Shown: in pieces, positions 29,095-47,015 of the stretch | How the letters are laid out: each line of letters opens with the position of its first letter | Position numbering within the stretch: the first letter of the stretch is position 1 | Assembly: GCA_963777605.1 (NCBI GenBank) | Contig: CAVZRV010000007.1 | Location: 672,001-736,000 of the forward strand | Reading direction: 5' to 3' | Length of the DNA: 64,000 nucleotides | Source of the DNA: an uncultured Acidobacteriota bacterium | Lineage (GTDB): Bacteria; Acidobacteriota; UBA6911; RPQK01; JAPXNP01 | Notes under the pieces: model-generated | Told to the model about the DNA's origin: nothing | Database searches by the model: none | What the model saw: only the letters and a program-made list of their open reading frames with translations | Position numbers and translations under genes: made by a program

Positions 29095-30750
29095 TCAAGG
29101 CTTCACGAACGACGTGTAGGCAATCGACTTCTGGACACCGGCACCCGAAGGAGCGGTTCCAACAACCCGAAGCACGACCCCCGAACCGGAAGCAACAGCC
29201 GTCACGGCGTCCTTGAAGGCTTTCGCCGTCATGACCGGCTGGCCGTTGACGTGGGTGATGACCAGGCGCGGACGGAGTCCGGCATCATCCGCCAGGCTGG
29301 CCGGGGTCACATCTAGAATCAGAACACCCTTCTCATCGGGAAGCTTCAGTTCCTCGGCGTCCCGCTCCGTCAGGGTCTGAAACTCGAGCCCGATCTCCTT
29401 GGGCTTCTCGGCAGGTGCCGGTTCTTCCTCAAATGAATAGCCCTTGCTGTCGGCCCGCGCCTGGGCTTCAAGAGTGCGCTCAGCCAACTCCACCTGGGTT
29501 TGGACGATCTCACCATGGCGCACCACGATAACCGGGACTTTCTTTCCGGGAGGCGTATTCGCCACAGCCGTTCGCAAGTCCCAAAGGCCTTCGATTTCAC
29601 GACCACCAAACTTGACGATCACATCTTCGGGGCGGATCCCGGCCTTTGCTGCCGGCCCGCTGTCACTGGGCTCTCCGGTTTCATCGATCAACTGAGTGAT
29701 CACGACACCGTCGCCGTCCTTGATGCCTTCCTTGTCCTTGCCGACGACACCGAAGTACTTCGCCAGTTCCGGGGACATGGGGAAGGTGTTCATGGAAACG
29801 CCAAGCCAGCCGCGCTGGATCTTGCCGCCATTGATCAGCTGATTATAGGAGTTCACGAAAACAGCCGACGGGATCGCAAAACCAATCCCGGCAAACTGCC
29901 CCGTCCGAGTCGAGATGAACGTATTGATCCCGACGATCTGACCATTCAGGTTGACCAGAGGACCTCCACTGTTGCCCGGGTTGATGGCCGCGTCGGTCTG
30001 AATGTAGTCACTGAACGACTGGGTTTCCGGGACCACCCGCTTGGTGGCCGAAACAATGCCCGCGGTCACCGTCTGCTCGTAGCCGAAGGGACTCCCGACC
30101 GCGATCACCCAGTCTCCGACCTGGAGGTCGGAGGAATTTCCGACTTTCGCGAAGGGAAGCGATTTGCCGACATCGATCTTGAGCACCGAAATATCAGACT
30201 CAGGATCGACCCCGACGACCCGGGCTTCGTACGTTTCGCCCCCCTGGAGCTGAACGTCGATTCGATCCGCCAGCCGGGGGCCGGAGCGATCCGCCGTCGG
30301 CGCCACGACATGATAGTTGCTCAGGATGTAACCTTCGGGATTGACGATCACGCCCGAACCCAGGCTGGCGCGCTTCTGACGGCTCGGGCCACTTCCTTCG
30401 GGACCACCGAAGAATCGCTGCCAGAAATCATCTCCGAAGAACTCCTTCATCTCCGGATGGGGATTGCTGCGGGAAACTTCCACGATCGACTCGGTGCTGA
30501 TGTTCACCACAGCCGGCTCAATAATACCGGCCACTTCGCGGAAAGCCTGCTGGAGTTGCAGCGCAGCTGAATCCGACGAAGAGGACTCCGCATCCCCCTC
30601 AATCTTGAGTTCCGCAATTTTCTCCTGGGTCGCGCTGGCAACAGGGTCGGACACCACCGATCCGATGACGATGCCCAATGCCACCGCAACTACAAGGGCA
30701 ATAAAAATCAGACCCTTTCGAGTCTGAAACCACAATTGACGATTTTCCAT
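29095..30750 (-). CDS. Do/DegP-family serine endoprotease with two PDZ domains
   Basis: GSGVI, SNYHVV, D-loop, QTDAAINPGNSGGPL, two PDZ domains; GGAGG SD supports ATG 30750. Confidence 0.93.
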   Translation of the reverse strand: MENRQLWFQTRKGLIFIALVVAVALGIVIGSVVSDPVASATQEKIAELKIEGDAESSSSDSAALQLQQAFREVAGIIEPAVVNISTESIVEVSRSNPHPEMKEFFGDDFWQRFFGGPEGSGPSRQKRASLGSGVIVNPEGYILSNYHVVAPTADRSGPRLADRIDVQLQGGETYEARVVGVDPESDISVLKIDVGKSLPFAKVGNSSDLQVGDWVIAVGSPFGYEQTVTAGIVSATKRVVPETQSFSDYIQTDAAINPGNSGGPLVNLNGQIVGINTFISTRTGQFAGIGFAIPSAVFVNSYNQLINGGKIQRGWLGVSMNTFPMSPELAKYFGVVGKDKEGIKDGDGVVITQLIDETGEPSDSGPAAKAGIRPEDVIVKFGGREIEGLWDLRTAVANTPPGKKVPVIVVRHGEIVQTQVELAERTLEAQARADSKGYSFEEEPAPAEKPKEIGLEFQTLTERDAEELKLPDEKGVLILDVTPASLADDAGLRPRLVITHVNGQPVMTAKAFKDAVTAVASGSGVVLRVVGTAPSGAGVQKSIAYTSFVKP

Positions 30751-30954
30751 TCGTTCCTCCAAATGAAACGGATGCTCCCGACGCAAAATCAGTTCCAAAA
30801 ATGCGCCAAGACAAGTTGCCGCCCGGCAGAATGCTCCAGTTCGAACGACTGCGAGCGGTTCCCCCGTTTGCCCAAAACGGGCGACAGGCTGGGCACCGGC
30901 AGAAACCGACTCACTCAATTATACGAATCTATTCGAATGCGAGTTCTCATTCAC

Positions 30955-32310
30955 TCAATTTCCCGAACTCGCGGACCCCTTCCGGAAGTACCGCCTGGCG
31001 GCGGCCACGACCTTCGGGGAAAGGAGCAGCACCGCGATCATGTTCGGAAATGCCATGAGGGCGAAGGCCGTGTCGATCAGGTTGACCACGGCACGGGCAC
31101 TCCAGACTGCCGCAACCCAGAGCGAACCCAGGTAGATGAAATCGTAGATGCGTTCCCGTTCCGCTCCAAACAGGAAGCTGAAGCACTTCTTTCCATAGTA
31201 CGAGTAGCCGAACATGGTCGAGAGGGCGAACAGCGTCACGACAACGGTCAGGAGAAGTAGGCCGGCAGATCCCATCGACTCCTCGAACGCCTTTGCCGTG
31301 AGGGTGACCCCCTCGATCCCGGCGGTCTCCCGCCACAGACCGCTGCTCAGAATGACGAACGCGGTGAGCGAACAGACGGCTAACGTGTCGATGACCGGCT
31401 CGATCATCGCAGCAAGGCCCTCCTGAATCGGCTCGCTCGTCTTGGCGGCTCCGTGGGCCATGGGAGAGGTGCCGATGCCGGCCTCGTTGGAAAACGCGGC
31501 TCGCTTGATCCCGGTCTGGATAACAGCGATGAGACCGATCCCCGCCGCTCCACCCGCCGCGGCAGTTCCAGTGAAAGCATCGTGAAAAACGAGTTCCACC
31601 ACTTCGGGAAGGCGGTGAAGGTTTGTCGATGCAATGATCAGGGCACCGATGAGATAGAGAAGACACATCGCCGGCACGAGCGCGCTCGCGACGCGGGCGA
31701 TCCGGGTGACGCCTCCCAAAACAACGATTCCGACCAGAACCATCGTCAGCAACCCGGTCGTTGAACGATTGAGCCCGTATGTCAGGTCGAGCATCTCCGC
31801 CAACTGGTTCGCCTGGAAAAGAGCCAGGCAGCCGACCGTTCCGCAGAGAGAGAAGAACAGCGCCAGTGGGCGGGCCTTTGGGCCCAGCCCCTCCTGCATA
31901 TAGTACATCGGCCCGCCCTGGAGCCTGCCGAGGGAGTCCCTTCCGCGAAACATGACCGCCAGCGAGCAGGAAAAGAACTTGGTGGCCATGCCCACAAAAG
32001 CGGCGACCCACATCCAGAACAATGCACCCGGGCCTCCCTGGGTGATCGCGATCGCAACTCCACCTATATTGCCCATTCCGACCGTCGCCGCAAGAGCCGT
32101 GCTGACCGCCTGGAACTGGCTGATCTCCCCCGGGTCCTGGTCGCGCCGGTAATCTCCCCGGAGAACCTTCCAGGTCTGACCCAGACGGATCAGGGGCAAG
32201 AACCTGGAATAGAGAAGGAGCACACTGCCACCACCGACAAGAAGAATGAGCAGGGGCATTCCCCAGGCATATCCCACTGCGGCTGCGAGCAGTCGATCAA
32301 TTGTCGCCAT
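30955..32310 (-). CDS. Alanine/glycine:cation symporter (AGCS, AlsT-like)
   Basis: ATVGMGNIGGVA, GGPGALFWMW, GGPMYY, FSNEAGIG. Confidence 0.93.
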   Translation of the reverse strand: MATIDRLLAAAVGYAWGMPLLILLVGGGSVLLLYSRFLPLIRLGQTWKVLRGDYRRDQDPGEISQFQAVSTALAATVGMGNIGGVAIAITQGGPGALFWMWVAAFVGMATKFFSCSLAVMFRGRDSLGRLQGGPMYYMQEGLGPKARPLALFFSLCGTVGCLALFQANQLAEMLDLTYGLNRSTTGLLTMVLVGIVVLGGVTRIARVASALVPAMCLLYLIGALIIASTNLHRLPEVVELVFHDAFTGTAAAGGAAGIGLIAVIQTGIKRAAFSNEAGIGTSPMAHGAAKTSEPIQEGLAAMIEPVIDTLAVCSLTAFVILSSGLWRETAGIEGVTLTAKAFEESMGSAGLLLLTVVVTLFALSTMFGYSYYGKKCFSFLFGAERERIYDFIYLGSLWVAAVWSARAVVNLIDTAFALMAFPNMIAVLLLSPKVVAAARRYFRKGSASSGN

Positions 32311-32326
32311 AGGCTAACCAGTTGAC

Positions 32327-34561
32327 TCAGGCAGGCTTCAGTTTCGCATAACTCTGCAACAGTTTCTTGACTCCAAGCCCTGGAAATCGGACCGTGACCT
32401 TCAGATCGTCGCCGGTCGATTCCACGTCGAGAACCTGTCCTTTTCCAAAGCGCTCGTGAACGATCAGGGTTCCCTTCTGCAGGCCGCCGCTCGACTTCTT
32501 CGAGGTCCGGTTCGCGAGGGCCTGCTTGATGCTTTCCGGGGAATTGTAGGTTCGCCCCGAAAAGTTCGACTTTGGTTTGGCCGGCACGCTCAGGGACGAG
32601 GCCTGCAAGTGCACCGGCGCCGCAAACGAACGAGAACCGTGAAAACCGGCCGAGTAACGATTCTCGATCAACTCGGTCGGGATCTCATGGAGGAAGCGAC
32701 TCGGCTGGTTGATCTCGTTGCTGTCCCGACCGAAAAACCGACGGTGGCGGGAATAACTGAGATAGAGCCGCCGACGCGCGCGGGTCAGTCCCACGTAGCA
32801 AAGCCGGCGCTCTTCCTCGAGGTCGTTTTCGGCAATCGAACGGCTGTGGGGGAAGAGGCCCTCCTCGCACCCGGCCAGGAAGACCACCGGGAACTCCAGG
32901 CCTTTCGCATTGTGAAGCGTCATCAGGGTGACATCCGCGGTTTCATCGACGTCATCGAGTTCGGTGTGAAGGGCCGCTTCATCCAGAAACTGTTGCCAAG
33001 ATTCCGCCCCCTCGTATTCGCGGGCAACATTCATCAGTTCCTTCAGATTGAGGATCCGGTTGGAGGCTTCCTCCGAGCCGTCCTCTTCCAGCCAGCGAAA
33101 ATAGCCGACCTTCTTGAGGATCTTCTCCATCGCCAGGTGCAGCGGTAAATCCCTCATCTCACGACACGCCTCAACCAGGTCGGCGAAGTCCTGCAGAGCC
33201 CGGTGCGTCCGGGCAGGGAACTCCTGATCGGCAAGGGACTTCAGGATCGCCTCCCAGATCGGGATGGAGTGGTCGGATGACATCCGCAGAAGCCGGCTTC
33301 GGGTCCGTTCCCCTATTCTCCGGGGGGGTTCATTCAGAATTCGTCCCAGAGAAACATCGTCTCCGGGATTGAGGACGACTCGCAGGTAAGCCGTCGCGTC
33401 CCGCACCTCGCGACGATGGTAGAAGCTGACTCCCCCCACCAGCTTGTAGGGGATCGACAGCCGGCGAAACGCCTCTTCAAACTGCCGCGACTGGAAGTTT
33501 GTGCGATAGAGAACCGCAATGCTGCGAATGCCGTCCTGCCGATGCAGGTAGGTCTGCTGGGCCACGAATGCCGCCTCGGTCCCCGCGTCCTCCGCCACAA
33601 AAACAGTGATCGGCTCTCCCTTGGGTAGTTCCGTCCAAAGCACCTTGTCTTTGCGGTTCAGGTTGTTGGAAACCACCGCCGTCGCTGCACTCAGGATGGT
33701 TTGGCAGGAGCGATAGTTCTGCTCGAGTTTGATTACCACGGCCCCAGGGAAATCGGCCTCAAAACGAAGGATGTTGGTAATGTCGGCGCCCCTGAATCCG
33801 TAGATCGCCTGGTCTTCGTCCCCCACCGCACTGAGGTTCTGATGGGTAACCGTCATGAGGCGAATCATTTCGTACTGGGGTGGGTTCGTGTCCTGGTATT
33901 CGTCGATCAGGAGATAGCGGAAAGTGTCGCCGTATCTGCGGCAGAGCTCAGGATTATCGCGGAACAGCTGCACGCTCAGAATCAGGAGGTCGTCGAAATC
34001 GACGCCGTTGGAACGACGGATCAGTTCCTGGTAGCCCTTGTAGAGTTCGTAAAGGATCTCGGCATCGAAATCACGACTCTCCCTCAGAAAATCTTCGGGA
34101 GACCACCCTCGGTTCTTGGAGCGGCTGATCATGCCTCTCGTCTTCTCGAGAGGCACGTCCTCGTCTTTCAGTTCCCGTTCACGGTAAAGCTGCTTGATCA
34201 ACCGTTTCTGGTCATCGACGTCACAGATGGCGAAGTCGGTACGCAGATCCAGCAACCCGGCGTGGCGACGCAGGAGGCGTACTCCGAAGGAGTGGAAGGT
34301 GCTGATCAAGGGAGCATACATTGAACCGCCCACTAACTCCTGCACCCGGGTACGCATCTCGGCTGCAGCCTTGTTCGTAAAGGTGACCGCGAGGATTTGA
34401 TCGGGGCGGGCAAAACCGTTCTGGATCAGGTAGGCGATCTTGTAGGTGATCGTCCGCGTCTTCCCACTCCCGGCTCCAGCCAGAATCAGGACGGGGCCCT
34501 CCACGTGCCGAACGGCGCGCCACTGTTCCGAGTTCAGCTCTTTCTCGAAGTCAATTGCCAT
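32327..34561 (-). CDS. pcrA: UvrD/PcrA ATP-dependent DNA helicase
   Basis: AGAGSGKT, TFTNKAA, DEYQDTN, VGDEDQ, LEQNYRS, TLHNAKGLEF, EEERRL; C-terminal Tudor-like HERFGKG. Confidence 0.93.
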   Translation of the reverse strand: MAIDFEKELNSEQWRAVRHVEGPVLILAGAGSGKTRTITYKIAYLIQNGFARPDQILAVTFTNKAAAEMRTRVQELVGGSMYAPLISTFHSFGVRLLRRHAGLLDLRTDFAICDVDDQKRLIKQLYRERELKDEDVPLEKTRGMISRSKNRGWSPEDFLRESRDFDAEILYELYKGYQELIRRSNGVDFDDLLILSVQLFRDNPELCRRYGDTFRYLLIDEYQDTNPPQYEMIRLMTVTHQNLSAVGDEDQAIYGFRGADITNILRFEADFPGAVVIKLEQNYRSCQTILSAATAVVSNNLNRKDKVLWTELPKGEPITVFVAEDAGTEAAFVAQQTYLHRQDGIRSIAVLYRTNFQSRQFEEAFRRLSIPYKLVGGVSFYHRREVRDATAYLRVVLNPGDDVSLGRILNEPPRRIGERTRSRLLRMSSDHSIPIWEAILKSLADQEFPARTHRALQDFADLVEACREMRDLPLHLAMEKILKKVGYFRWLEEDGSEEASNRILNLKELMNVAREYEGAESWQQFLDEAALHTELDDVDETADVTLMTLHNAKGLEFPVVFLAGCEEGLFPHSRSIAENDLEEERRLCYVGLTRARRRLYLSYSRHRRFFGRDSNEINQPSRFLHEIPTELIENRYSAGFHGSRSFAAPVHLQASSLSVPAKPKSNFSGRTYNSPESIKQALANRTSKKSSGGLQKGTLIVHERFGKGQVLDVESTGDDLKVTVRFPGLGVKKLLQSYAKLKPA

Positions 34562-34696
34562 TGGTCTCTGCCCCGGAAATGCACAAAAACAGGTCTATCA
34601 GAGTAACACCCCTACACGACAGCCGCGCCAGTAGCTCCCTGGTCAGCCCCGCCCCCGTGCGGTGCGCCGACCATTCGCTGAAGTGAAACTGTTTTC

Positions 34697-34846
34697 GAAT
34701 CGGGAATCAGGAAGCGAGAATGAACCCACACTTCAGCGAGATCAGGCCGCGATGGAGTGAGAAGCACCCGATTTTCGTCATTCGACAACCATTCTCGATG
34801 CTCGCTTCTCGATTCCCGATTCCTCCCCCGGTCTCCGGTCTCCTGT
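34697..34846. repeat. Degenerate heptamer repeats in inverted arrangement
   Basis: GAATCGG GAATCAG GAAGCGA GAATGAA (34697-34724) versus ATTCTCG ATGCTCG CTTCTCG ATTCCCG ATTCCTC (34791-34825), plus GTCTCCG GTCTCCT. Confidence 0.55.
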
Positions 34847-34952
34847 CCGTGAAGTTTAAGGTTCGCGAAAGGGACTGGCCCGGCAAAAAAATTGGGGCGT
34901 ACCCGCGGCCGCGGATACGCCCCTGCAATGACCAGTTGCCGGGCCGGCGGAA

Positions 34953-35951
34953 TCAGTTTCCGGCAGCCCGCTCGAGAAATTCGTCGAAGCCGGCAAGCGA
35001 ACCATTGTGGGTTGCGCGATAGAGCTTCTCCAACTGCTTCCGGCAAGGATCGGCGTAATCCGTCCCGCCGAGAACCGTGCACTTGGCAAAAGACTTCATG
35101 GCCGGTTCAAACTGTTCCTGGTTCCAGTAGGCCATCCCGATAAAATACTCACCCTCGGCCACGCGGGTCTTGTTCTTGGGGGCCAGCTTCAGAGCAGGCT
35201 GGTACATTTTCGGAACATTCGCCCAATTCTTGGTCTCGTAGGCGTGATGCCCCATGATCGTATAGGCCACCGATTTCTCTTCGTTAACGAAGCTCTGCCA
35301 CTCGGCGTCTGGAACCTGGGCCGGCTTGGGCGCTTCGTCAAGGGCCTTGATGCTCAGGTTGGCGTACTTGTCGGCCGTGGCCCAGTCTTTCTTCTGGGCG
35401 TAGTACTTCATGATCGTGGGGAGCAGGTCGTAGCACTGTTCCGGAGAAACGGTCGGGCAGTACTTCTCAGCGAACTCAACCGCCTTCTCGGCGTTGCCCG
35501 AAGAGTTATAGGAACGTGCCAATATCATAACGATCTGCGGATCATCGGGCTTTGCCGCATAGACCTTCTCGCCATACTTGATCGCCTTGTCGTATTGCTG
35601 GGAGAAGTAATCCGACCAAGCCGTCAGATAGAGGATCGTGGCGTTTTCAGGATCGACGTCGTTCAGGAATTTCTCGCCCTGCGTTGCAGCCTTGGCGTAG
35701 TCCCCCTCCTGAACGTAACCATTCAGCAGCTTCGCGTACCCGTCAATCGCGTACTGCTTGAGCGATGACTGCGGATGAGCCTTGATGAAGACAATAATTG
35801 CATCTTCTCCATCCTCCATCGCTTTCTGATATTCGTTGTACTCTTCGATGGTGTAGTCCTGGGCGAAAGCCACACCGGCATTCAGCAGCAGTACGAACCC
35901 AAAGAAGAGAATTCCCCACCCAGATTTCTGTCTCCATTTTTCGCGTGACAT
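34953..35951 (-). CDS. Exported TPR-like protein
   Basis: Signal peptide ending AFA; helical repeats; strong coding-like composition. Confidence 0.8.
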   Translation of the reverse strand: MSREKWRQKSGWGILFFGFVLLLNAGVAFAQDYTIEEYNEYQKAMEDGEDAIIVFIKAHPQSSLKQYAIDGYAKLLNGYVQEGDYAKAATQGEKFLNDVDPENATILYLTAWSDYFSQQYDKAIKYGEKVYAAKPDDPQIVMILARSYNSSGNAEKAVEFAEKYCPTVSPEQCYDLLPTIMKYYAQKKDWATADKYANLSIKALDEAPKPAQVPDAEWQSFVNEEKSVAYTIMGHHAYETKNWANVPKMYQPALKLAPKNKTRVAEGEYFIGMAYWNQEQFEPAMKSFAKCTVLGGTDYADPCRKQLEKLYRATHNGSLAGFDEFLERAAGN

Positions 35952-36125
35952 TATTTGTCAAGGCCTCCATCCAGATTCGTTATTTCTCTCATGCCTTGCT
36001 TGCGAGGTGCCCCCGGCCCGAAGCCGGGCGCGGGAGAAGTTGCCATTGTAAGCACCTGCGAGCTTTCTGGCAATAGTTCTGATGAACGCGGATCCCTAAA
36101 GTTGCGCCCGTATAATGATCTGTAC

Positions 36126-37103
36126 ATGACGACTGGAAAGAGCACCAGCCTCCTGTCCATCCCTGTTGAACAGATCGATTCTACAGATTCGTTCTACTCG
36201 CATCCAACTTGCGACGCAAGCCCCAGTGAGTGCCTCCGAAGATCGATCAGCGCCTGCGGCATCGGCACTCCCCTGGTTCTGGAACCGGCTGGGACCCGGC
36301 GTTTTCGAATCGTGGACGGATTCCGTCGTTACCAGGTTGCTCTCGAACTCGGCTACCGCGAAATCCCGGGAACACTGGTCTCGGGCAATCCCACGGATCA
36401 TTTTCTGCTGGCGATCGCTCTGAACTCCGCGCACCGCAACTGGAGCGAGCTTGACCTCGCCGAACTGGTGGTCCGGCTGGAGCGCGAGTTCGGGCTTACC
36501 CGGGAGCGGGTCACTTCGAAGGTTGGCCCATTGGTCGATCGGCCGCTCCAGGGAGAAGTCCTGATCAGGCTCGAGCGTCTCGGCTCACTTCCGGACCGGC
36601 TTCGGGAAGCCGCCCGCGGCCGCCTCACGTCGTCCGCCGCCCTTTCACTGGCGAAGCTCCCAGAGGAGGACTGGCTCTTCCTGATCGAAGTGGTCGAGAA
36701 CCTCCAACTCGGCCAGAACAAGCAACGGGAAATTCTGGAGTTGTTCGAGGAACTGGTCCGCCGAGAGGAAGTGCGGGCAGCCGAGATTTGGGAACGGAGC
36801 GGTGCCGGGGCCATCGCGCAATCGTCAGAATTGTCTCCATCCGACCGGTTCCAAGGAGTGAAAAGAGCCCTCTGGCGACTTCGCTTCCCTACCCTGAGCC
36901 GCCATGAAGCCCGCTTTCAGGAACTGACGCGAGGAATGAAGCTTCCTCGCGGTGTAGGGGTCCACACGCCCCCCTTCTTTGAAGGTGACCGGCTCGAGAT
37001 CCGGCTCCGTCCCGCTTCTCAGGCAGAACTCCGAGAGGCTCTGGAAAAGCTTTCCTCCGGCCCGGTGCTGGACCGGTTCGAGGAAATATTTGAGATGCTT
37101 TAG
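36126..37103 (+). CDS. ParB/Sulfiredoxin N-terminal domain protein
   Basis: LRRSISACGIGTPLVL...RIVDGFRRYQVA (ParB GxxR arginine patch); helical C-terminus; TATAAT at 36111 supports ATG 36126. Confidence 0.82.
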   Translation: MTTGKSTSLLSIPVEQIDSTDSFYSHPTCDASPSECLRRSISACGIGTPLVLEPAGTRRFRIVDGFRRYQVALELGYREIPGTLVSGNPTDHFLLAIALNSAHRNWSELDLAELVVRLEREFGLTRERVTSKVGPLVDRPLQGEVLIRLERLGSLPDRLREAARGRLTSSAALSLAKLPEEDWLFLIEVVENLQLGQNKQREILELFEELVRREEVRAAEIWERSGAGAIAQSSELSPSDRFQGVKRALWRLRFPTLSRHEARFQELTRGMKLPRGVGVHTPPFFEGDRLEIRLRPASQAELREALEKLSSGPVLDRFEEIFEML

Positions 37104-37105
37104 AT

Positions 37106-38242
37106 ATGCTCCCCTATCGCCCCGAAAAGATCCTGGTCGAGCAGGGTGCGGAAACCAGTTCCGTTACCCGGCGCATACTGGCACGGCTCCCCGACGTTCC
37201 GGTCGAGACGGTGCCCTCTGCCGAAGCCCTGCTCGAATCGAAGAAACGGGAACGGCCCACTCTGACCGAGGCCAAACGGTCACTGCTGCTCGCCCGATTC
37301 AAGGGAGACTTCTTCAAGGAATGTCCCGGCCAGCAAAGCCGGGCGGTCGTTCCCAATGTTTGCTGCGACTACTTCGTCATCAACCTGACCAGCAACTGTC
37401 ACATGGAGTGCACCTACTGCTTCCTTCAGTCCTATCTCACCTTCCCCTACCTGGTCGTCTACGTGAACATCGATGACCTGTTTCGCGAACTGAGCCGGAG
37501 GTTCGCGGCCGAGCCAGATCGGGTCTTTCGAGTCGGAACCGGGGAACTGGCCGACAGCCTGGCCCTCGATCACCTGACGGGCTACGGCCAGAGCCTCGTC
37601 GGATTTTTCGCGACACAGCGGAACGCCATTCTCGAGCTCAAAACCAAGACCGGCATGGTGGATGACCTGATTGGGCTCAGGCACAACCGGAGAACAATCC
37701 TGGCCTGGTCGGTCAATCCTCCGGACGTGGTCCGGCTCGAGGAACTCAAAACGTCTTCCCTTTCGCGACGCCTCTCGGCAGCCTCCCGGTGCTGTGCGGC
37801 CGGCTATCCAATCGGGTTTCACTTCGATCCGCTCGTTCACTACCAGGACTGGGCTCGCGACTACCGGGAACTGGTTGACCGCATCTTCGCCGCGGTACCT
37901 CCCGACCAGGTGGCATGGATCTCCCTGGGCGGATTGCGCATGCCATCAGCACAGCGGGAAGGGATCAAAGAGCGATTCCCCCACAGCTCACTTCCCTACG
38001 GCGAACTGGTCCCGGCCGAAGACGGGAAGCTTCGCTATTTCAAAGCGATACGGCTGGAGATGTACCATTCGCTGCTGGGTTGGATCAGGGAACACTCGCC
38101 CCAGGCCCGGGTCTATACCTGCATGGAGCGCCCGGAGGTCTGGCGGCGGGTATTCGAAGGAACTCCACCATCCAACCGCGAGTTGAATGACTACCTGACC
38201 GGGGAGTGGGCCCCAACTGGGTCCGACCAGGCAGGCCTCTGA
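37106..38242 (+). CDS. Spore photoproduct lyase-like radical SAM protein
   Basis: NCHMECTYCFLQ (CX3CX2C); RVGTGELADSL, LELKTK, GFHFDP, DGKLRYF, YTCME. Confidence 0.88.
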   Translation: MLPYRPEKILVEQGAETSSVTRRILARLPDVPVETVPSAEALLESKKRERPTLTEAKRSLLLARFKGDFFKECPGQQSRAVVPNVCCDYFVINLTSNCHMECTYCFLQSYLTFPYLVVYVNIDDLFRELSRRFAAEPDRVFRVGTGELADSLALDHLTGYGQSLVGFFATQRNAILELKTKTGMVDDLIGLRHNRRTILAWSVNPPDVVRLEELKTSSLSRRLSAASRCCAAGYPIGFHFDPLVHYQDWARDYRELVDRIFAAVPPDQVAWISLGGLRMPSAQREGIKERFPHSSLPYGELVPAEDGKLRYFKAIRLEMYHSLLGWIREHSPQARVYTCMERPEVWRRVFEGTPPSNRELNDYLTGEWAPTGSDQAGL

Positions 38243-38253
38243 CCGAGGAAGCG

Positions 38254-39141
38254 TTAGGCCCGATTGGCGTCCAGGCAGTCGATGACCGCCGGCGCAATAT
38301 CATCGAGAGCGGCGGTCGAGTCAAAGTGCTCCCGGATCGGTCCCCAGAGCAGAGTGGGAACCTCGTTCAAGGTATGGGTCTTTCTGCTGAAATCTTCGAA
38401 ATTTCCATGATCGCTGCAGACCAGCAACGAAACAGTCTCCGGGTCGATCTCATCAACCAGTGCAGCCAGGAAGTCATCCAGGCAACGGGCCAGGTTCACT
38501 CCCTCGTCCAACGTGCCCCGGTGACCGACGAGATCAGTCATGAAGTACTCGTACAGGACCAGGTCGAACGGGCCGGAGAGCGCAGCCAGAATCTCGGCGG
38601 CACGGCGGGAAGTAAACGTCTTCACCTCCGCGTCGCGGTCCCGTAGCCACTGGTTCGTGAAATCCATGAAAAGGCCTCGATTTTCGCGGAGGTCGTCCAT
38701 CGTTCGAAGCGGTACACCGGCCGACTCGCACATCACCGTGGTCGCTGAGACCCACCGGGGACGCGATTGGAAGAAGCGAGGGGTGTAAACGTTCGCAAAC
38801 GTCACCGGACGTCCCCGGTCGCGCATCCGCCGGAAAAGGGAACCCTCAGCAAGTTTCTCTCGCAGTACCCGGTTTGGAAATCCCTGGAGATGGTAGCCCA
38901 GCAGGAGGGCAGCGTTTTCACCCGTAAAGAGAGTCGTCTGCCCGGTCGCGCTCTGGGGCAAGCCTTCGACAGACAAAGTTGCGTCTGTGCGGACACAAAC
39001 GCCTCCCTTGGGAAGAGAAGTTTGCCTTTCCTGAAAGAAATTGAGGACTGCGCCCGAGAACCGAGCCATCGGATTGACCGCAGGATCTTTCGGGCCGATC
39101 CCGAGGCCATCGATAAAAACCAGGATCATCTTGCTCTTCAT
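38254..39141 (-). CDS. Metalloenzyme (alkaline phosphatase superfamily; PGM/phosphopentomutase-like)
   Basis: FIDGLG, PQSATGQT, DLVGH, SDHGNFED, HT motifs. Confidence 0.82.
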   Translation of the reverse strand: MKSKMILVFIDGLGIGPKDPAVNPMARFSGAVLNFFQERQTSLPKGGVCVRTDATLSVEGLPQSATGQTTLFTGENAALLLGYHLQGFPNRVLREKLAEGSLFRRMRDRGRPVTFANVYTPRFFQSRPRWVSATTVMCESAGVPLRTMDDLRENRGLFMDFTNQWLRDRDAEVKTFTSRRAAEILAALSGPFDLVLYEYFMTDLVGHRGTLDEGVNLARCLDDFLAALVDEIDPETVSLLVCSDHGNFEDFSRKTHTLNEVPTLLWGPIREHFDSTAALDDIAPAVIDCLDANRA

Positions 39142-39261
39142 GGTGATACCCGATTCCGTCATCGGCGGCGGTTCCCGTACACGAGGGGTTAAAGCAGTGC
39201 CGCGGTCCGATATAATGACCACTTCCGAAGAGGTTTCAACTTCCCTTTCGCGAAGGTAACC

Positions 39262-41226
39262 GTGGACGCCCCAAAGTTAAAGCTCCCTCGAATGGCGGGT
39301 TACACAATTGTAGCAGCAGCCGTTTTCCTGGTTGGGAAGGTGACCTCCATGTTTCTTCCAGGGAACATCCTGGGCGTTCTGCAGGACATCGGCGTTCTCG
39401 CCCTGGCCGTCTCCGCCGTCTATTACGCCGTCCAGAGCTTCAACTGGATGCGGAGAGTGCTTCTCTGGAAGGTGCGCAACCGAATCATCGTTTCCTTTGC
39501 GGTCGTCGGCTTCCTTCCGCTGATAGTGCTGCTGATCTTCTCTTCAATCACCCTTTACCTGATCTCACAGCGCCTGAGCAATTTCTACCTCCAGAGCGAA
39601 CTCCAACAGATCTCCAGTATGCTCGACGAAGCTGGGCGCCAATCTGTCGTCAACTACCTGAGAAGACAGAACTCCAGCGTCCAGCACCTCGAAGAGGCAG
39701 CCCGCGCCGGGCTCCAGCGTATCCCCTTCGGCCTCAAGAACACCACCTGCTACATCTATCGGGCGTCTCCCCCCGGCACCCGGACGTTCAGCTGGGTCGC
39801 CACGGTCTCGGCGGAAGGAGGACCGACGCGCGAAGCCCCCCCGCTGTCACGCTGGATCCAGTCCGGCTTCTCGGGCCTGACGCTGGGTGCGGGCGGCCTC
39901 AGCTTCACCAGCGTCTTCGATCCCGACGACGATACCCGTTTCGTGATCCAGCTCCCGTTCGATACAGTAACGTTCGACTACCTGCGCAGGCGGACTTCCC
40001 TTGAACTGCTACTGACAAAATCGACGCCTCGCGACAATCCGGCGGCGTTCGAACGCGCCTATACGACGATCAGTGACGTCAATCGGCAGGGGATCGCAGT
40101 CCGAGGGGTTCACTTCTTCCGACCGGTCGACTGGGCAACCGGAGAACCCGGCGACTACTGGTCGATCGCCTTCTCCCTCCCGGTCCCGGTCCTGCTCGAA
40201 TACTTTTTCCATCAGGAGGTCGGATTCCTCGTACTCATTGCCGGCATCCTGATCGGGACATTTGTCCTGATTGAGATCTTGTCCCTGGTGATCGGCGTCA
40301 TGATTGCGCACCGGATAACCTTCTCGATCCACAACATTTACTCGGCCATCCAGAGCATCCAGGCAGGTGATTTCGGCGCCCAGATTCCCTCCCGGCACCG
40401 CGATCAGCTCGACAACGTGGCGGACTCGGTCAACGACATGTCCTCCAGCATCGTGCACTTGATGCAGGAAGTCTCACGCCGGGAAGCCCTGGAAAAGGAA
40501 CTGGAAATCGCCAAGGAAGTCCAGATCCAACTCTTCCCCCAGCAGTTGCCCACCGTCAACCGGCTGGCCATCTCCGCGGTCTGCCGACCAGCCCGCCAGG
40601 TCAGTGGTGACTATTACGATTTTCTGGTCCAGGATTCGGACGACGTGGACATCGTGGTTGGCGACATTTCCGGCAAGGGAATTTCCGCCGCTCTCCTGAT
40701 GGCGAGCCTCCAGGCCACGATTCGCAATGAACTTGTGGCAACCGACGGAGAGCCGCGGAAGAGGATGGCCCGGGTTGCCCATAACGTCAACCGACGACTT
40801 TATCGCAGGTCATCGCCGGAATCCTACTCGACACTGGTCCTCAACCACTGGGACGCCAGGGCCCGTCACCTCTATTACTGCAACGCCGGTCACCATCCTC
40901 CCCTCCATTTCTCGAAAGGCGAAGTCAATGGACTCACGGTCGGCGGTACCGTCGTTGGGCTATTCGAGAACTGGCAGTTCGAAGCCGGCGCCGTCGAGGT
41001 CAACCCGGGCGACGTCGTGCTCTATTTCACTGACGGCGTGGTCGAGGCAGCCAACGTCGATGGGGAGCAGTTTGGGACCGAGCGCCTCATCGAACTTGTC
41101 CAGCCGAACCTCTTCCTGACTCCCGAGGACATCCAGGAACTGGTCCTCGAGCAAGTTTTCTCCTGGAGCGAGGGTGAAGAGCAGGCGGACGACATCACCG
41201 TCGTTTGCCTCAAAGTGACCGACTGA
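39262..41226 (+). CDS. Membrane SpoIIE/PP2C (RsbU-like) phosphatase with HAMP domain
   Basis: TM helices, HAMP, ELEIAKEVQ, VSGDYYD, GDISGKG, NAGH, FTDGV, DDITV. Confidence 0.92.
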   Translation: MDAPKLKLPRMAGYTIVAAAVFLVGKVTSMFLPGNILGVLQDIGVLALAVSAVYYAVQSFNWMRRVLLWKVRNRIIVSFAVVGFLPLIVLLIFSSITLYLISQRLSNFYLQSELQQISSMLDEAGRQSVVNYLRRQNSSVQHLEEAARAGLQRIPFGLKNTTCYIYRASPPGTRTFSWVATVSAEGGPTREAPPLSRWIQSGFSGLTLGAGGLSFTSVFDPDDDTRFVIQLPFDTVTFDYLRRRTSLELLLTKSTPRDNPAAFERAYTTISDVNRQGIAVRGVHFFRPVDWATGEPGDYWSIAFSLPVPVLLEYFFHQEVGFLVLIAGILIGTFVLIEILSLVIGVMIAHRITFSIHNIYSAIQSIQAGDFGAQIPSRHRDQLDNVADSVNDMSSSIVHLMQEVSRREALEKELEIAKEVQIQLFPQQLPTVNRLAISAVCRPARQVSGDYYDFLVQDSDDVDIVVGDISGKGISAALLMASLQATIRNELVATDGEPRKRMARVAHNVNRRLYRRSSPESYSTLVLNHWDARARHLYYCNAGHHPPLHFSKGEVNGLTVGGTVVGLFENWQFEAGAVEVNPGDVVLYFTDGVVEAANVDGEQFGTERLIELVQPNLFLTPEDIQELVLEQVFSWSEGEEQADDITVVCLKVTD

Positions 41227-41727
41227 CTACCCTCGTGGTACGAGCCTGAAACCGCTCAGGGAGAGCTCGGCGTGGCTCGACAGCCAACCCTTGGGGAATT
41301 CCTCTATATAGAACGAGAAAGCCCTCTCGGTGAGCGGATCGATGGCCGGAGTATAGGGGCCCGGCTGAAGAGGAGTTCGCACTTCCTCGGCTACCGGTTT
41401 GTCGTAGTTGAAGAAGGTTAACTTGACCTCGACCACATCGACCGGCCGCTCGCCGTTGTTCACGACGACTCCCGAGACCATCACGATCCTCTTTTTGGCG
41501 AAGTTGAGCCCCATCTGAATATTGGCGTCCTTCAGCTCGAGGAATGACCGATAACGGTCAAACTCCGGATCCCCGGCATGAACAACGCCGGTCAGATCAA
41601 CCTTCTTCTCCTTGACGGAGTTGACGACAAAGATCGCCCCGGCTGCGAGAAGTCCCACGACCACGACAGCCAGGGGAACGATCTTGACCATTGAAAACGA
41701 CTTGCTGCTATCGGACTTCTCGAACAT
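41227..41727 (-). CDS. Single-TM hypothetical protein with Ig-like (FxLYD-like) domain
   Basis: TM helix, then VSGVVVNNGERPVDVVEVKLTFFN; start overlaps the Pal stop. Confidence 0.6.
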   Translation of the reverse strand: MFEKSDSSKSFSMVKIVPLAVVVVGLLAAGAIFVVNSVKEKKVDLTGVVHAGDPEFDRYRSFLELKDANIQMGLNFAKKRIVMVSGVVVNNGERPVDVVEVKLTFFNYDKPVAEEVRTPLQPGPYTPAIDPLTERAFSFYIEEFPKGWLSSHAELSLSGFRLVPRG

Positions 41728-42593
41728 CAGTGTTCCTTGAGGAGGACAAACTCGGTCCGCCGGTTCAGGGCGTAGGCTTCCTCCGTCTGCCCCTTGTCGA
41801 AGGGGCGTTCCTCACCAAGGGATACGGTGGCAATCCGGTTGGCGTCGATCCCATGCTCAACCAGGTAATCCCGGACTACGGCCGCCCGCTTGTCGCCCAG
41901 CGCAAGATTGTATTCTTCGCTTCCACGTTCGTCGGTATGTCCTTCCAGCACAAAACGGATCACTCGATTCTCGGGTCGGTTCAGCCATCGCACATCCGCA
42001 TCGAGCGTCAACCTCGATTCCGCCGTCAGTTCGGCGCTGTCGAAGGAAAAGAAAACCGGGTTCACTTCAACCTTAAACTGCTCGTCCGGCGTCAATCTTC
42101 TGAGGTTCTCGGAGCTCACGTCCCCGGCAACCGGGGCGCCGACTCTTACTTCCACCGTGGCCTTTCGGGTCAGCTCGCCCCCGGGCCCTTCCGCTGTAAA
42201 CGTGTATGTAGTGGTGGCGTCCGGGTAGAATTTGATCCGGCCCGAAGCCTCCACCTCTCCAATCGCCGGTTCGATGTTGACTCGCGTCGTATTCTGGCTT
42301 TGCCAGGTCAGGAGTGCCGACTCTCCAGGGTTGATAACCGACGGTTCGACTCGAAGCTCGAGCGTCGGAGCCATGACAACACCTCCCCTGTCGGTACCGG
42401 CCGATTCATCCACACTGGGAGTGCCGACAGGTCCCGGGGACGGTGGAAGCGGGGGAGGCCTTTTTCCACAACTGCCGAGGATTAGCAGGACCATCAGGAG
42501 AGCCGCCAGCTTCCCCGAAAGGGACAACCGGGCGATCCATCCCGGGCTCAGCCGACAACGATTTGGAATGCGCTTGAGTTCAGGAATTTTCAC
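41727..42593 (-). CDS. pal: OmpA/Pal family peptidoglycan-associated lipoprotein with Ig-like insert
   Basis: Lipobox LGSC; VFFSFDS, EGHTDERGSEEYNLALGDKRA, SLGEERP, NRRTEF. Confidence 0.85.
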   Translation of the reverse strand: MKIPELKRIPNRCRLSPGWIARLSLSGKLAALLMVLLILGSCGKRPPPLPPSPGPVGTPSVDESAGTDRGGVVMAPTLELRVEPSVINPGESALLTWQSQNTTRVNIEPAIGEVEASGRIKFYPDATTTYTFTAEGPGGELTRKATVEVRVGAPVAGDVSSENLRRLTPDEQFKVEVNPVFFSFDSAELTAESRLTLDADVRWLNRPENRVIRFVLEGHTDERGSEEYNLALGDKRAAVVRDYLVEHGIDANRIATVSLGEERPFDKGQTEEAYALNRRTEFVLLKEH

Positions 42594-43843
42594 GACGCGC
42601 CTACGATCACAGTGGTGTAGTTTAACGTATCCAAATAAAGTCGAGCAACCCGGGAGACGTCGCTAAGCGTAACAGATCTAATAAGATCCGGGTAACGGTC
42701 AGGGTACTCGGCCGAGAGCCCAAACACTTCGATCAGCAACAGCAAACGAGCCACAGAGAGGTTCGACTGGAGTTCAAAGACGAAGTTGCCGGTCAGAAAA
42801 GCTTGGGCCGCCTCAAGTTCGTCGGCCTGGGGCCCTCCTTCCACAAATGCTTCGATCTCCCGAAGCAAGGCTTCCCGTGCACGGGTCAGGTTCTCGGGGG
42901 CCGTCCCAATATAGGCAACGAACCTCCCAGGATAGATTCCCGCAGATCCGGCAAGATCGGAGTAGGTCAGGTAGGCTAATCCCCACTCATCTCTCAGGTG
43001 CCTGGGGATTCGGCTGGTGAAACCGGGGCCGCCCCCCAGAACCGTGTCCATGACCTGTGCCGCATAATAGTCAGGACTGCTGCGCGCGATACCGAGGTGT
43101 CCCAGATAGAGATTGACCTGTTCCTTGTCCATGAAGAAGGAATCCAGGACCGGTTCCGACTGCCGGGTCAAGCCCTCCAGGCTCGCCAGGTCCAGGTCCG
43201 GGTTGTTCCAATCGCCAAACTGCCGCCCGACCTCCCCGATCGCGACGCCCAAATCGATATCTCCAACGATTACGACAACACAGTTCTCCGGTCCGTACTT
43301 CCTGCGATGAAAGTCCTGGAGTTGTTCCCGGGAGATTTGAGCCACACTCTCCACCGTTCCAAGCACCGGGTCCGCCAGCGGAGTTCCCCTGTAGATCCAC
43401 CGATTGAGACGCTGGCTGCCGACCAGTTGAGGATCGTCGGCCATCGACATCAGGTGACCGATAACCTGGTGTCGTTCGAGCTCGATACGTCTCTCCGGAA
43501 AAATCGGCCGCTGCAACATGTCCGCCAGCAACTCCACTCCGATTCTGAGATGTCTGGAACGGAGGGTCAGACTGACACCCGACAACTCCCGTTCGCTGAA
43601 GCTGCTGATCTCGGCCCCGATGCCCTCGAGTTCCCCGGATATCTCCCGGTGAGTTCGGGACTCCGTTCCCTCCTCGAGGAGCCTCGCAGTCAACGAAGCC
43701 ATCCCTGGCCACTCGACAGGGTTCTGGTCCTTTCCAGCCAGGAAGAATGCACTCACGGATACAAGCGGAACCTTCCGCGTCCGATGGTGGAGAAGCCGGA
43801 GCCCGTTGTCGAGGTGCACCCTCTGAAACCATGGGTCAGCCAT
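42590..43843 (-). CDS. M16B (pitrilysin) peptidase, non-catalytic subunit
   Basis: LDNGLRL; no HxxEH; LGGGPGFTSRI...LRDEWGLAY (R/Y pair). Confidence 0.88.
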   Translation of the reverse strand: MADPWFQRVHLDNGLRLLHHRTRKVPLVSVSAFFLAGKDQNPVEWPGMASLTARLLEEGTESRTHREISGELEGIGAEISSFSERELSGVSLTLRSRHLRIGVELLADMLQRPIFPERRIELERHQVIGHLMSMADDPQLVGSQRLNRWIYRGTPLADPVLGTVESVAQISREQLQDFHRRKYGPENCVVVIVGDIDLGVAIGEVGRQFGDWNNPDLDLASLEGLTRQSEPVLDSFFMDKEQVNLYLGHLGIARSSPDYYAAQVMDTVLGGGPGFTSRIPRHLRDEWGLAYLTYSDLAGSAGIYPGRFVAYIGTAPENLTRAREALLREIEAFVEGGPQADELEAAQAFLTGNFVFELQSNLSVARLLLLIEVFGLSAEYPDRYPDLIRSVTLSDVSRVARLYLDTLNYTTVIVGAS

Positions 43844-45075
43844 GATTTTCCTCTGCTGGAAGTACGCAGGTGACGGCCGAACCCGGGGACAGATACCGCC
43901 GCACGCAATCTCGGATCTCGACCGGCTGGACCGCTTCCACGCGTTCGATCAGTCGGTTCAGGCTCTCCCAGTGGTCGAGCACCGCGAAGAGACCAAGCTG
44001 GAAAGCCTGGTCAAACGGGCTTTCCAGGTCTGTCAAGAAGCTGGTCAACGACTGGTTCTGAGCTTTGCCCAATTCGTCGTGGCCAATCAATTGATTCCCC
44101 AGGTCCTCGAGGACTTCTTCAACGGCCGCAACCACACGATCCGGGCTCACGCCCTCAGCCAGCTCGAAGCGAAAAATGAAGTGATAGGGGTCGATCGTCT
44201 CTTCCAGCTCGGTGGACTGAAACGAAACCAGTTCCTCTTCCTCTACGAGGCGCTGGTGGAGACGAGAGAGTTTCCCCTGTGAAAGGATTCGGTCAAGGAG
44301 CATGAATCGGACAAAATCGGGCGAGCTGAGGGCCGGCGCGGGAAAGGCCATCATGATTCGCGTGACACCGCTCGGCTGCTGGAGAGTTCCCCGCCAGGGC
44401 CCCGCTATCCGTCTGCCCCTGTGCCTGGCGTGGCGAGGTCTGCGCTCTCCCGGCAGCTTCCCAAAGTGATCCCGGATCGATTCCAGGACAGACTCTCGTT
44501 CGAAGTCTCCGGCAATCACCAGGGTGGCATTGCCGGGGACGTAGAACCTCCGGTAATAGGATCGCACCGCTCGGCGATTGAATCGGACAATGTCGTCAGG
44601 CAGGCCAACGATCGGCTTGCCGTACGGATGATCGGGGAAGGCGACCCGGTCAATCAGTTGCTGCATCGCCTCCCAGGGATTGTCCAGGCTCATCCTGGCT
44701 TCCTCGAGTACAACCTGGCGCTCCAGCTCGAACTCGTGCCGGACGAACCGGGTGTTGACCATTCGGTCCGCCTCCATCTCCAGCGAGTGGAGCCATCGAT
44801 CCGAGGCGAACGAGAAGTAATAGGCCGTGAAGTCATGCCCCGTGAAGGCGTTATTGTATCCGCCGTTCATCGTCGTCTGGAAGTCGATTTCTCCCTTGCC
44901 GAAGCGCTCAGTTCCCTTGAACATCATGTGCTCAATGAAATGAGACATCCCACTGAAACCGGCCCGCTCATCACGGCCGCCGACCCGGTACCAGATCATT
45001 GACGTAACGATGGGGACAGAGTGATCCTCACGAGTCAGGATTCTGAGCCCGTTTTCCAGCGATGACTCAGTAACT
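43836..45075 (-). CDS. M16B zinc peptidase, catalytic subunit (5' end unresolved)
   Basis: GMSHFIEHMMFKGT (HxxEH). The in-frame EVTESSLENGLRILTREDHSVPIVTS lies upstream of the ORF-track start at 44999, with no canonical start codon; probable frameshift near 45082. Confidence 0.85.
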
Positions 45076-46556: not shown

Positions 46557-47015
46557 ATGATTGGCGTTGCGCAGCGGGCGCGGGATCTCATCAAATCAGT
46601 CGTTGAAGAAGAAGGTTTTGAGCTGGTTCACGTGGAATACACGGCGACGGGCTCTGCGCCTGTTCTGCGGGTGTACGTAGACAGACCAGGAGGTATCACC
46701 CTCTCGGATTGCGCGGGATTGAGTAGAAGGATCAGTGTCCTCCTCGACGTGGAGGATTTTATCCCGACTCATTACTTATTGGAAGTGTCTTCGCCGGGAA
46801 TCGAGCGTCCACTCTTTACAGAGCGCGACTATTTACGGTTCAACGGACGGGAAATCCGTCTGAGTACCCGAGAGAAGATAGACAAGCGAAGGAACTTTAG
46901 AGGGACTATAGAGGAATTCCATGACGGCATTGTGCGCCTTCGTTGTGCAAATCAGGTCTATGAGATCCCGTTTGCACAGGTGAAACGCGCTAACTTGGTA
47001 TACGACTTTGATTGA
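46557..47015 (+). CDS. rimP: Ribosome maturation factor RimP
   Basis: ELVHVE, LRVYVDRPGGITLSDC, YLLEVSSPGIERPL. Confidence 0.95.
   Translation: MIGVAQRARDLIKSVVEEEGFELVHVEYTATGSAPVLRVYVDRPGGITLSDCAGLSRRISVLLDVEDFIPTHYLLEVSSPGIERPLFTERDYLRFNGREIRLSTREKIDKRRNFRGTIEEFHDGIVRLRCANQVYEIPFAQVKRANLVYDFD

Follow-up and report, generated by a model that had tools for sequence, protein, structure and literature searches.

A conserved pair of a ParB-derived protein and a spore photoproduct lyase-like radical SAM enzyme in bacteria, with a putative role in nucleic acid base modification

We report a pair of adjacent genes in a 64,000-nucleotide (nt) stretch of DNA from an uncultured Acidobacteriota bacterium (contig CAVZRV010000007.1 of assembly GCA_963777605.1, positions 672,001 to 736,000), hereafter called the window. 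Gene 1 (36126..37103, + strand) encodes a ParB-derived partner subunit of 325 amino acids (aa), and gene 2 (37106..38242, + strand) encodes a radical S-adenosylmethionine (SAM) enzyme of 378 aa, which has the fold of spore photoproduct lyase (SPL) and belongs to a distinct subfamily. The two genes form a conserved module, apparently a real and undescribed one. We infer, with a probability of about 40%, that their products form a radical SAM enzyme of two subunits whose target is a nucleic acid base, most likely a DNA pyrimidine, in a pathway with a dedicated family 2 glycosyltransferase (GT2). The enzyme is more likely to modify nucleic acid than to repair spore damage.

Conservation of the pair was assessed in one scan of GTDB genomes, which gave at least 600 matching stretches; the 80 loci examined are those closest to gene 2 and not a random sample. 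A homologue of gene 1 lies upstream of the enzyme gene on the same strand in 63 of the 80 loci, within about 300 nt of it in 58 of these 63, and is fused to it in one further locus (L029), which confirms that the pairing is conserved. By record label, a partner is present in 24 of the 25 Acidobacteriota loci and in 40 of the 55 others, which include Binatia, Thermodesulfobacteriota, KSB1, WOR-1 and more. A complete fusion of gene 1 and gene 2 was also detected (P0158, 26% identity over 313 aa, E 1e-16). At E<=1e-10 the related proteins fall into 4,281 clusters or more, and the relatives of the enzyme are spread over hundreds of little-studied bacterial species.

The 63 partners differ in length: 43 are complete, 19 are without the ParB N-terminal domain (N-domain) and the helix-turn-helix (HTH) region, and one (L006) is cut by an assembly gap. 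With a profile built from stand-alone partners only, 26 of 150 distant representatives were found to carry the helical segment of residues 179-262 fused at the enzyme N-terminus (E<1e-3, against 0.003 for the best reversed decoy), and these fused forms keep only this segment of about 80 residues. What stays constant in the partner is therefore not the clamp domain but the helical segment with R-[YF]-P at its end. An earlier sequence-only reading of this DNA had suggested that the ParB-like partner possibly acts as a nucleotide-dependent clamp; a core role of such a clamp is not upheld, since the N-domain is dispensable in some lineages (the 19 loci and the fused forms).

The product of gene 2 has the CX3CX2C motif, the partial TIM barrel and the SAM-binding residues of radical SAM enzymes, and matches the Pfam model of SPL (PF20903, E 1e-35) with 123 bits, above the cut-off of 27. 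It remained below the cut-offs of TIGR04070, the SplB equivalog model (136.3 bits versus 400), and of TIGR03886 (70 bits versus 437). The AlphaFold2 model of the enzyme, with a predicted local distance difference test score (pLDDT) of 96, matches SPL over the whole length (Foldseek template modelling score 0.76-0.85), in agreement with the SplB-like layout noticed before; the VIA comparison with 4fhc gave Z 37.0 and a root mean square deviation of 2.4 over 326 aligned residues, the next best match having Z 14.8. Identity to SPL is about 25%. For the residue comparison, 133 near-full-length rows were aligned, consisting of the query and 132 representatives, while 18 of 151 sequences were left out as fragments. 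The references were Bacillus velezensis SplB, in which C141, Y97 and Y99 are at the B. subtilis numbers, a clostridial SplB, and SPL-family proteins from Nostoc and Granulicella. In a quick tree, 98 family rows formed one supported clade, on a long branch from the four references (Bacillus, Clostridium, Nostoc and Granulicella), and the enzyme of the window fell in a supported clade of 14 rows, the other 13 of which are labelled Acidobacteriota. Some record labels disagree with the tree (L065, L057, L023, L027 and L058), an 'Enterobacteriaceae' bin being found among Binatia and 'Cytophagia' bins with rows labelled Zixiibacteriota or Deferribacteres; caution is advised with the labels of these bins.

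Residue roles in SPL were taken from PMC3467042, and counts refer to the 133 rows unless indicated otherwise. The radical SAM motif C98-x3-C102-x2-C105 (37397..37420, + strand) is present in all rows, and the SAM contacts D150 (133), K181 (133), S202 (125 S and 8 T) and Y104 (132) are kept; in gene 2 the motif (CHMECTYCFLQ) and the GTGELAD segment are present as first noted. SPL holds the intra-lesion phosphate with the pair Arg273 and Lys309 (PMC3467042), and this pair is kept as R278 (133) and K308 (125 K and 5 R). Of the three contacts to dihydrothymine, described as Arg193, Glu268 and Tyr339 in Geobacillus numbering (PMC3467042), at least two were lost: Arg194 is replaced by S, A or G in all rows and Glu269 by S in 132. 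For the third contact, Tyr340, the alignments disagree, one giving Y337 and two others together with the structural end point giving 338 (L, F or T), and it is probably replaced across the family too. Arg304 and Tyr305 form the hairpin wedge for base flipping in SPL (PMC3467042). The corresponding beta-hairpin (residues 300-311, 38003..38038, + strand) is six residues shorter, has no Arg-Tyr wedge and keeps K308; it is 12 residues long in all 80 loci versus 18 in all four references, which also keep R194, E269 and Y99. The gained residues are E147, E177, K179, H239, D241, R142, R310, R316 and a family-specific C-terminal Y-x-C-M-E motif (38114..38128, + strand; C339 in 131, M340 in 131 and E341 in 132 rows). 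The counts of E147, H239 and D241 were taken from the 133 representatives, because the scan for the 80 loci used those motifs and their invariance among these loci is partly circular. With the wedge deleted and the lesion contacts replaced, the enzyme is probably not a canonical SPL.

The loss of Cys141, the H donor of Bacillus SPL, had been the main argument for this view. In its place the enzyme has E147 (37544..37546, + strand; E in 125 rows), which was aligned to 4fhg and to B. velezensis SplB and stands opposite Cys141 of the latter. However, clostridial SPL is also without Cys141 and uses an upstream Cys as H donor (PMC3467042, PMC5368176). Because C73 of the family sits at that position, aligned with clostridial C75, the loss of Cys141 alone proves nothing. 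The proposed loss of Tyr99 was borne out in part: F106 is opposite Tyr99 of B. velezensis SplB, but this is not a family trait, as the position is Y in 104 of 120 close homologues and I (50), F (46) or Y (26) in the distant rows. F106 was rejected as a signature residue for this variability. The extra CPG...VCC cluster is present, although its first Cys has a precedent in the clostridial donor. This three-cysteine loop (C73, C86 and C87; 37322..37366, + strand) is a candidate second metal site, in which C73 and C87 are found in 129 and 130 rows and C75 replaces C86 in a subgroup. Together with C339, four extra cysteines occur in 126 of the 133 rows (C73/C86/C87/C339 in 93, C73/C75/C87/C339 in 30, and all five in 3). 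That the third Cys moves between two positions suggests the behaviour of a metal ligand, and C73 may bind a metal with C86 or C75 and C87. The counterpart of the loop in SPL holds the 3' thymine, and the conserved cysteines may form a second metal centre in the pocket or a thiol relay that takes the place of Tyr99. In four sequences (P0142, P0186, P0210 and P0221) C73 and C86 are lost together, in three of them with C87 and in one with C339; they represent a derived subgroup without the cysteine loop.

A true SPL of the clostridial type would use C73 as the donor, and its accessory subunit would restore base flipping, the substrate being spore photoproduct of dry or frozen cells. This would explain the alignment of C73 with the clostridial donor Cys (PMC3467042, PMC5368176) and the retention of the SAM and phosphate residues, and databases indeed name these proteins spore photoproduct lyase. 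We nevertheless regard it as very unlikely, given the family-wide replacement of Arg194 and Glu269 (and probably Tyr340, where the register is ambiguous), the deleted wedge, the presence of Y at the Tyr99 position in 26 of 133 rows only, the SplB equivalog score of 136 versus 400 bits, and the long supported branch from references that keep R194, E269, Y99 and the long hairpin.

The site of the missing wedge is also where the partner is predicted to bind. Modelled as a complex, as had been suggested for the pair, gene 2 and residues 150-325 of gene 1 scored 0.77, 0.77 and 0.75, and the best of three controls scored 0.00. Of 157 solved complexes 116 reached the score mark, as did 2 of 215 mismatched pairs, counts which are only rough given the alignments and ligands used. 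The runs share at least 93% of contacts, with a partner pLDDT of at least 87. The interface comprises residues 295-305, 312-315 and 342-344 of the enzyme, around the shortened hairpin, and residues 209-213, 254-257, 283-288 and 324-325 of the partner, which are built from its most conserved motifs (RFP and PFFEG). In this model, the docked partner sits where SPL carries its wedge. Searches of the PDB found no relative of partner residues 200-325, and recall of a solved complex is therefore unlikely; as a caveat to the score, two halves of a gene that can be fused are apt to pass. The prediction thus supports, but does not prove, binding, and a physical partnership is likely. Comparison and prediction together support a heteromeric radical SAM enzyme, in which the partner would occupy the wedge site, the phosphate contacts are kept and the lesion contacts appear rebuilt.

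The descent of gene 1 from ParB is supported by a weak match to ParB_N (PF02195, E 6e-6), by the comparison of the family profile with Myxococcus xanthus ParB (E 5e-28, positions 11-180) and by hhalign (98.9%), which indicate homology of the N-domain and the HTH region; the AlphaFold2 model has a pLDDT of 95. Its score against TIGR00180 is 25 bits versus a cut-off of 58. The N-domain, a nucleotide-binding domain in ParB (residues 9-104, 36150..36437, + strand), is optional in the family. Here it keeps S40, G45 and the GxxR motif (G65, R68), and the ParB arginine patch DGFRRY, already recognized from the sequence, is present. Among 46 full-length partners, the cytosine contacts S40 and G45 are kept in 40 and 45, and G65 and R68 in all; the E/D-N motif is mostly kept (E/D99 in 44, N in 38), this copy having L at 99, so that the motif reads LN. 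Missing from the full-length partners are both hydrolysis residues (Q52 and E93 of M. xanthus ParB): position 66 is F, Y, L, V, W or R and never E (46/46), and position 23 has no Q among its six commonest residues. R54 is mostly missing as well (present in 13 of 46). With the roles described for residues of the ParB nucleotide site (PMC13229309), it is reasonable to predict that the domain binds CTP and hydrolyses it weakly; the choice of nucleotide is reported not to be predictable from sequence in the ParB fold (bioRxiv 10.1101/2025.10.10.680097).

The remainder of the partner consists of three parts. The HTH-like region (residues 105-178, 36438..36659, + strand) contains an insert of six residues and was matched by HTH_ParB in 9 of 65 partner members at E<=0.1; its recognition helix shows no conservation. 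The core helical segment (residues 179-257, 36660..36896, + strand), with the pattern LGxNK...E...R and R-F-P 253-255 at its end, is found in all partner forms; R253 is kept in 62 and P255 in 64 of the 65 partners. The C-terminal alpha/beta segment (residues 258-325, 36897..37100, + strand) carries the PFFEG loop (283-287), the predicted second docking element, with E286 kept in 64 of 65. In the AlphaFold2 model this segment has a beta-beta-alpha pattern that may be likened to the ParB dimerisation domain; the Pfam and structural searches gave no match. A fold search with residues 165-325 gave helical matches only (Z<=6.6), an uninformative outcome and no evidence of a new fold. The ESM Atlas holds unnamed clusters of 160-190 aa from Binatota and Thermodesulfobacteriota that resemble the C-terminal half of the partner.

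Clustering of the open reading frames (ORFs) of the 80 loci revealed one further neighbour shared across lineages, a single GT2 group with a median identity of 50%. It is located upstream on the same strand in 34 loci, in 31 of them with the partner and in three abutting the enzyme gene directly; by label, these are 0 of the 25 Acidobacteriota loci and 34 of the 55 others. The GT2-bearing loci fall into 8 separate groups on the quick tree, which is a fairer number than 34 because kin share gene order, and part of the linkage could go back to an ancestral operon. The GT2 is very conserved, with no fewer than 6,978 clusters matching at E<=1e-60, and has DxD and ED motifs and two invariant cysteines. 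Its acceptor-side loop W-x-R-x-G-x-R-V-N-P-x-x-K-H-x-K, in which W, R, G, N, H and K are kept in 29 of 29 sequences, has a median net charge of +6 over 17 residues; the loop is absent from the best PDB match, and chondroitin synthase has none of it. This loop suggests that the acceptor is an anionic polymer. The sequence-only reading, which had not seen the GT2, left repair and modification side by side as candidates, and the conserved GT2 shifts the balance from repair towards modification.

Several findings weigh against a base-modifying enzyme in a GT2 pathway. The GT2 is not found in the window, nor in any of the 25 Acidobacteriota-labelled loci. Most GT2 enzymes synthesize glycans, and glycan enzymes are also what this one matches best in the PDB and NCBIfam, in all cases below cut-off. 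The radical SAM enzyme itself is near neutral, with a median net charge of +1.5. Moreover, no restriction or defence genes recur near the 80 loci, 16 of these have no partner within the fetched flank (one with only 170 nt upstream), and all come from a single scan in which they were chosen by closeness to gene 2.

The kinship with SPL also allows a repair enzyme for another lesion, for example some other crosslink or a bulky adduct that might bear a sugar. The partner would then scan the DNA and deliver the lesion, and the GT2 linkage would reflect ancestral synteny or a separate step. The closest characterised homologue is a repair lyase of the same fold, the phosphate pair is kept, a Cys is found at a known H-donor position, and the acidobacterial loci manage without an adjacent GT2. 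The genes are chromosomal, with no close copy of the enzyme, the GT2 or the C-terminal half of the partner among 72,556 plasmids and 50,697 phages. Other SplB-like enzymes of non-sporulating organisms are also thought to repair other lesions (PMC4929162, PMC2628731, PMC3765255). We consider such a repair function possible, if somewhat unlikely: no SOS-type box is common to 75 upstream regions, no repair gene recurs across lineages in the 80 loci (uvrD in 11, Acidobacteriota only), and the GT2 adjacency in 8 separate groups would be left unexplained. A mobile or defence element was rejected, given the missing plasmid and phage copies and the lack of any PADLOC or PHROG match for the enzyme; the sole PADLOC match was a weak one of the ParB domain to the MTase_II model (E ~1e-3).

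A different kind of substrate is suggested by a PNP_UDP_1 nucleosidase-family domain, which is linked to the module in four cases: P0143 and P0194 have it as a fusion, in L029 (7024-7608) it overlaps upstream, and in L075 (9025-9807) it lies downstream. In three of the four it takes the position that ParB_N has elsewhere, and its matches to HpnG, futalosine hydrolase and MTAN are weak, none reaching the cut-off. The enzyme could thus act on a small molecule or nucleotide-containing metabolite by radical adenosylation or sugar tailoring, followed by a nucleosidase step and glycosylation, with the ParB-derived subunit in a structural or regulatory role. The hopanoid (HpnH/HpnG/HpnI) and futalosine (MqnE/MqnB) pathways offer models for this logic. 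The missing wedge and the dispensable N-domain would agree with it, and the new invariant polar residues E147, E177, K179, H239 and D241 would suit a sugar-like substrate. On balance we find it unlikely, as a linked nucleosidase is seen in few cases (2 of 80 loci and 2 of 150 representatives) and would also be expected from disposal of 5'-deoxyadenosine, whereas the partner descends from a DNA-binding protein with a nucleotide pocket kept in all 46 full-length members, and the GT2 loop is strongly basic.

For the base-modifying enzyme, which we prefer, the following sequence of events is conceivable. The helical segment and PFFEG loop of the partner would bind the shortened hairpin at the wedge place of SPL, which is well supported, and the partner may thereby supply the DNA grip that the enzyme has lost. 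Where the N-domain is kept, it may in addition bind CTP and hold DNA, probably with poor hydrolysis. Judging from the family and the conserved residues, the [4Fe-4S]/SAM site would generate the 5'-deoxyadenosyl radical while R278 and K308 hold the nucleotide phosphate. The pocket has apparently been remodelled to take a different substrate from spore photoproduct. The loop of three cysteines, possibly together with C339, would bind a second metal centre or serve as a thiol relay. There is no conserved Tyr99 relay, and SAM is therefore probably consumed. Finally, the GT2 would add a sugar to the product or make a glycosylated substrate; in this genome it would have to lie outside the window.

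In a more specific version of this scheme, which is speculative and quite improbable, cellular chromosomes would acquire a base-J-like mark by a route that needs no oxygen. The SPL-fold enzyme, loaded on DNA by the ParB-derived subunit, would take H from the thymine methyl group and an auxiliary Fe-S centre on C73, C86 and C87 would accept the electron; water would add to give 5-hydroxymethyluracil, to be glycosylated by the GT2. In SPL, the thymine methyl carbon is 4.2-4.5 Å from the donor Cys sites and 5.3 Å from SAM (PMC3467042). If true, this route would be the radical SAM counterpart of the ParB-dioxygenase-glycosyltransferase systems of phages, in hundreds of bacterial species, and a categorically new chemistry.

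The phage systems provide the closest precedent for the logic of the module. Phage thymine dioxygenases (5mYOX) are reported to need a ParB-like activator on double-stranded DNA, to tolerate mutated residues of its nucleotide site, and to co-occur most with glycosyltransferases (31%) and ParBs (27%) (PMC13229309). Likewise, the module would combine a base-acting enzyme with a repurposed ParB-like partner and, in relatives though not in this window, a glycosyltransferase in the neighbourhood, and its ParB nucleotide-site residues are conserved yet apparently not a core requirement. The catalyst is different, a radical SAM enzyme versus an Fe/2-oxoglutarate dioxygenase, as is the location in cellular chromosomes versus phages. 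Unlike ParB176, which needs its N-domain, the partner keeps the HTH-like region and can lose the N-domain. Here we found fusions and a confidently predicted interface, whereas the phage study describes a complex that could not be trapped (PMC13229309). The resemblance therefore is one of logic and not of membership, the logic matching that of ParB-assisted base modification with glycosylation.

With the CTP clamps ParB, Noc and KorB, the partner shares the homologous N-domain and HTH and, for the most part, the S and G that contact cytosine and the GxxR and EN...R motifs; it differs from them by the missing hydrolysis residues, the unconserved recognition helix, the added helical segment and PFFEG loop, and the lack of a parA gene nearby. 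Compared with SplB (Geobacillus 4FHC, Bacillus and Clostridium types), the enzyme has a deleted wedge, replacements of Arg194, Glu269 and Cys141 and a variable Tyr99, together with the additional C86/C75, C87, C339, E147, E177, K179, H239 and D241 and the C-terminal CME extension, and only it has a partner subunit and GT2 linkage. The module thus belongs to neither the SplB, the ParABS nor the phage 5mYOX family.

SPL-like genes in non-sporulating organisms have been described in print, with substrate unknown (PMC2628731, PMC4929162, PMC3765255, PMC9477430). These SplB-like enzymes (TIGR03886, SOS-linked, archaeal NreB-adjacent) resemble ours as SPL-type radical SAM enzymes outside the endospore formers. 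Unlike our enzyme, the representatives from Nostoc and Granulicella have retained Cys141, Tyr99, R194 and E269 as well as the long hairpin, and no GT2 or ParB-like neighbour is annotated at their loci. On a plasmid of Granulicella tundricola (L004, 2456-3550), such an SPL-family gene is adjacent to an ATP-dependent ligase gene; it keeps Cys141, Tyr99 and the long hairpin, and Acidobacteriota therefore hold two unrelated SPL-like subfamilies. As of 2021, SPL and phage gp53 were listed as the only DNA-acting radical SAM enzymes (PMC8989533). Our literature search, which left most subscription papers outside, found no description of a ParB and SPL-like pairing, and in the main text of a preprint on ParB fusions (bioRxiv 10.1101/2025.10.10.680097) the terms 'lyase' and 'glycosyl' are absent, although its supplementary tables might list such proteins. 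Among the thousands of proteins that carry the name 'spore photoproduct lyase' or 'DNA photolyase' in bacteria that do not sporulate, there may be a distinct enzyme with its own subunit and glycosyltransferase. In this enzyme a ParB appears to have turned into a subunit, its nucleotide domain being kept, lost or replaced by a nucleosidase, and the module offers a concrete three-gene handle on the role of SplB-like enzymes where no spores exist.

Further genes were observed beside individual loci. In five loci of one Thermodesulfobacteriota-type clade (L030, 5470-5889; L046, L055, L067 and L074), the gene directly upstream of the GT2 codes for a small, basic product of about 113 aa, which presumably resembles a Rho N-terminal domain. 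Two partner-less enzyme genes, each a single case, are followed by a second radical SAM gene (L073, 5865-6821) and by a ThiI-like/NFACT-R RNA-binding gene (L079, 9089-10060). In the window, a metalloenzyme gene (PF01676; 38254-39222, - strand) is convergent with gene 2; it is found in 7 of the 80 loci, all Acidobacteriota, and we read it as synteny. The end of a uvrD/pcrA gene does lie 1.56 kb away on the opposite strand, as first observed, but a functional linkage was not substantiated: the gene neighbours 11 of the 80 loci, all Acidobacteriota, and was dismissed as lineage synteny.

Elements of a ParABS system were searched for. No parA was found among the 54 window ORFs scanned with Pfam, in line with the first inspection, and parA is not among the recurring neighbours of the 80 loci. 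Likewise there is no evident parS: two parS-like matches with 3 mismatches in 16 positions (13/16) were found at 26902-26917 and 46624-46639, both inside genes, the latter in rimP, and neither is a clear parS (shuffle mean 0.12; 1 of 100 shuffles reached 2). None of 85 loci has a match with at most one mismatch. The Rfam scan of 30000-44000 gave no match.

Upstream of gene 1, a consensus scan of the + strand called no full sigma-70 promoter. On the - strand, a sigma-70-like site, TTGCCA-17-TACAAT (36073-36045), faces a divergent tetratricopeptide repeat (TPR) gene (34953-35951), and such a TPR gene is divergent from the partner gene in 18 of the 80 loci. A GTTC-N4-GAAC palindrome at 36076-36087, which resembles a LexA box, occurs in only this one of 75 upstream regions and thrice more in the window, and SOS control was rejected; the 75 regions share only A/T-rich chance words and no spaced palindrome or repeat. 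The ORF coordinates agree with the gene layout first described, two genes 2 nt apart with TATAAT ahead. This -10-like hexamer (36111..36116, + strand) is 9 nt 5' of the ATG of gene 1, a spacing that makes a near-leaderless transcript likely and is identical in loci L007 and L008. A loose TAnnnT-type hexamer 4-11 nt ahead of the partner start codon was found in 18 of 30 full-partner loci lacking the GT2, a count made with no shuffle control; loci with such a -10-like hexamer include the window (36111-36128), L007, L008, L020, L033, L035, L039, L043 and others, which suggests leaderless mRNAs in these Acidobacteriota.

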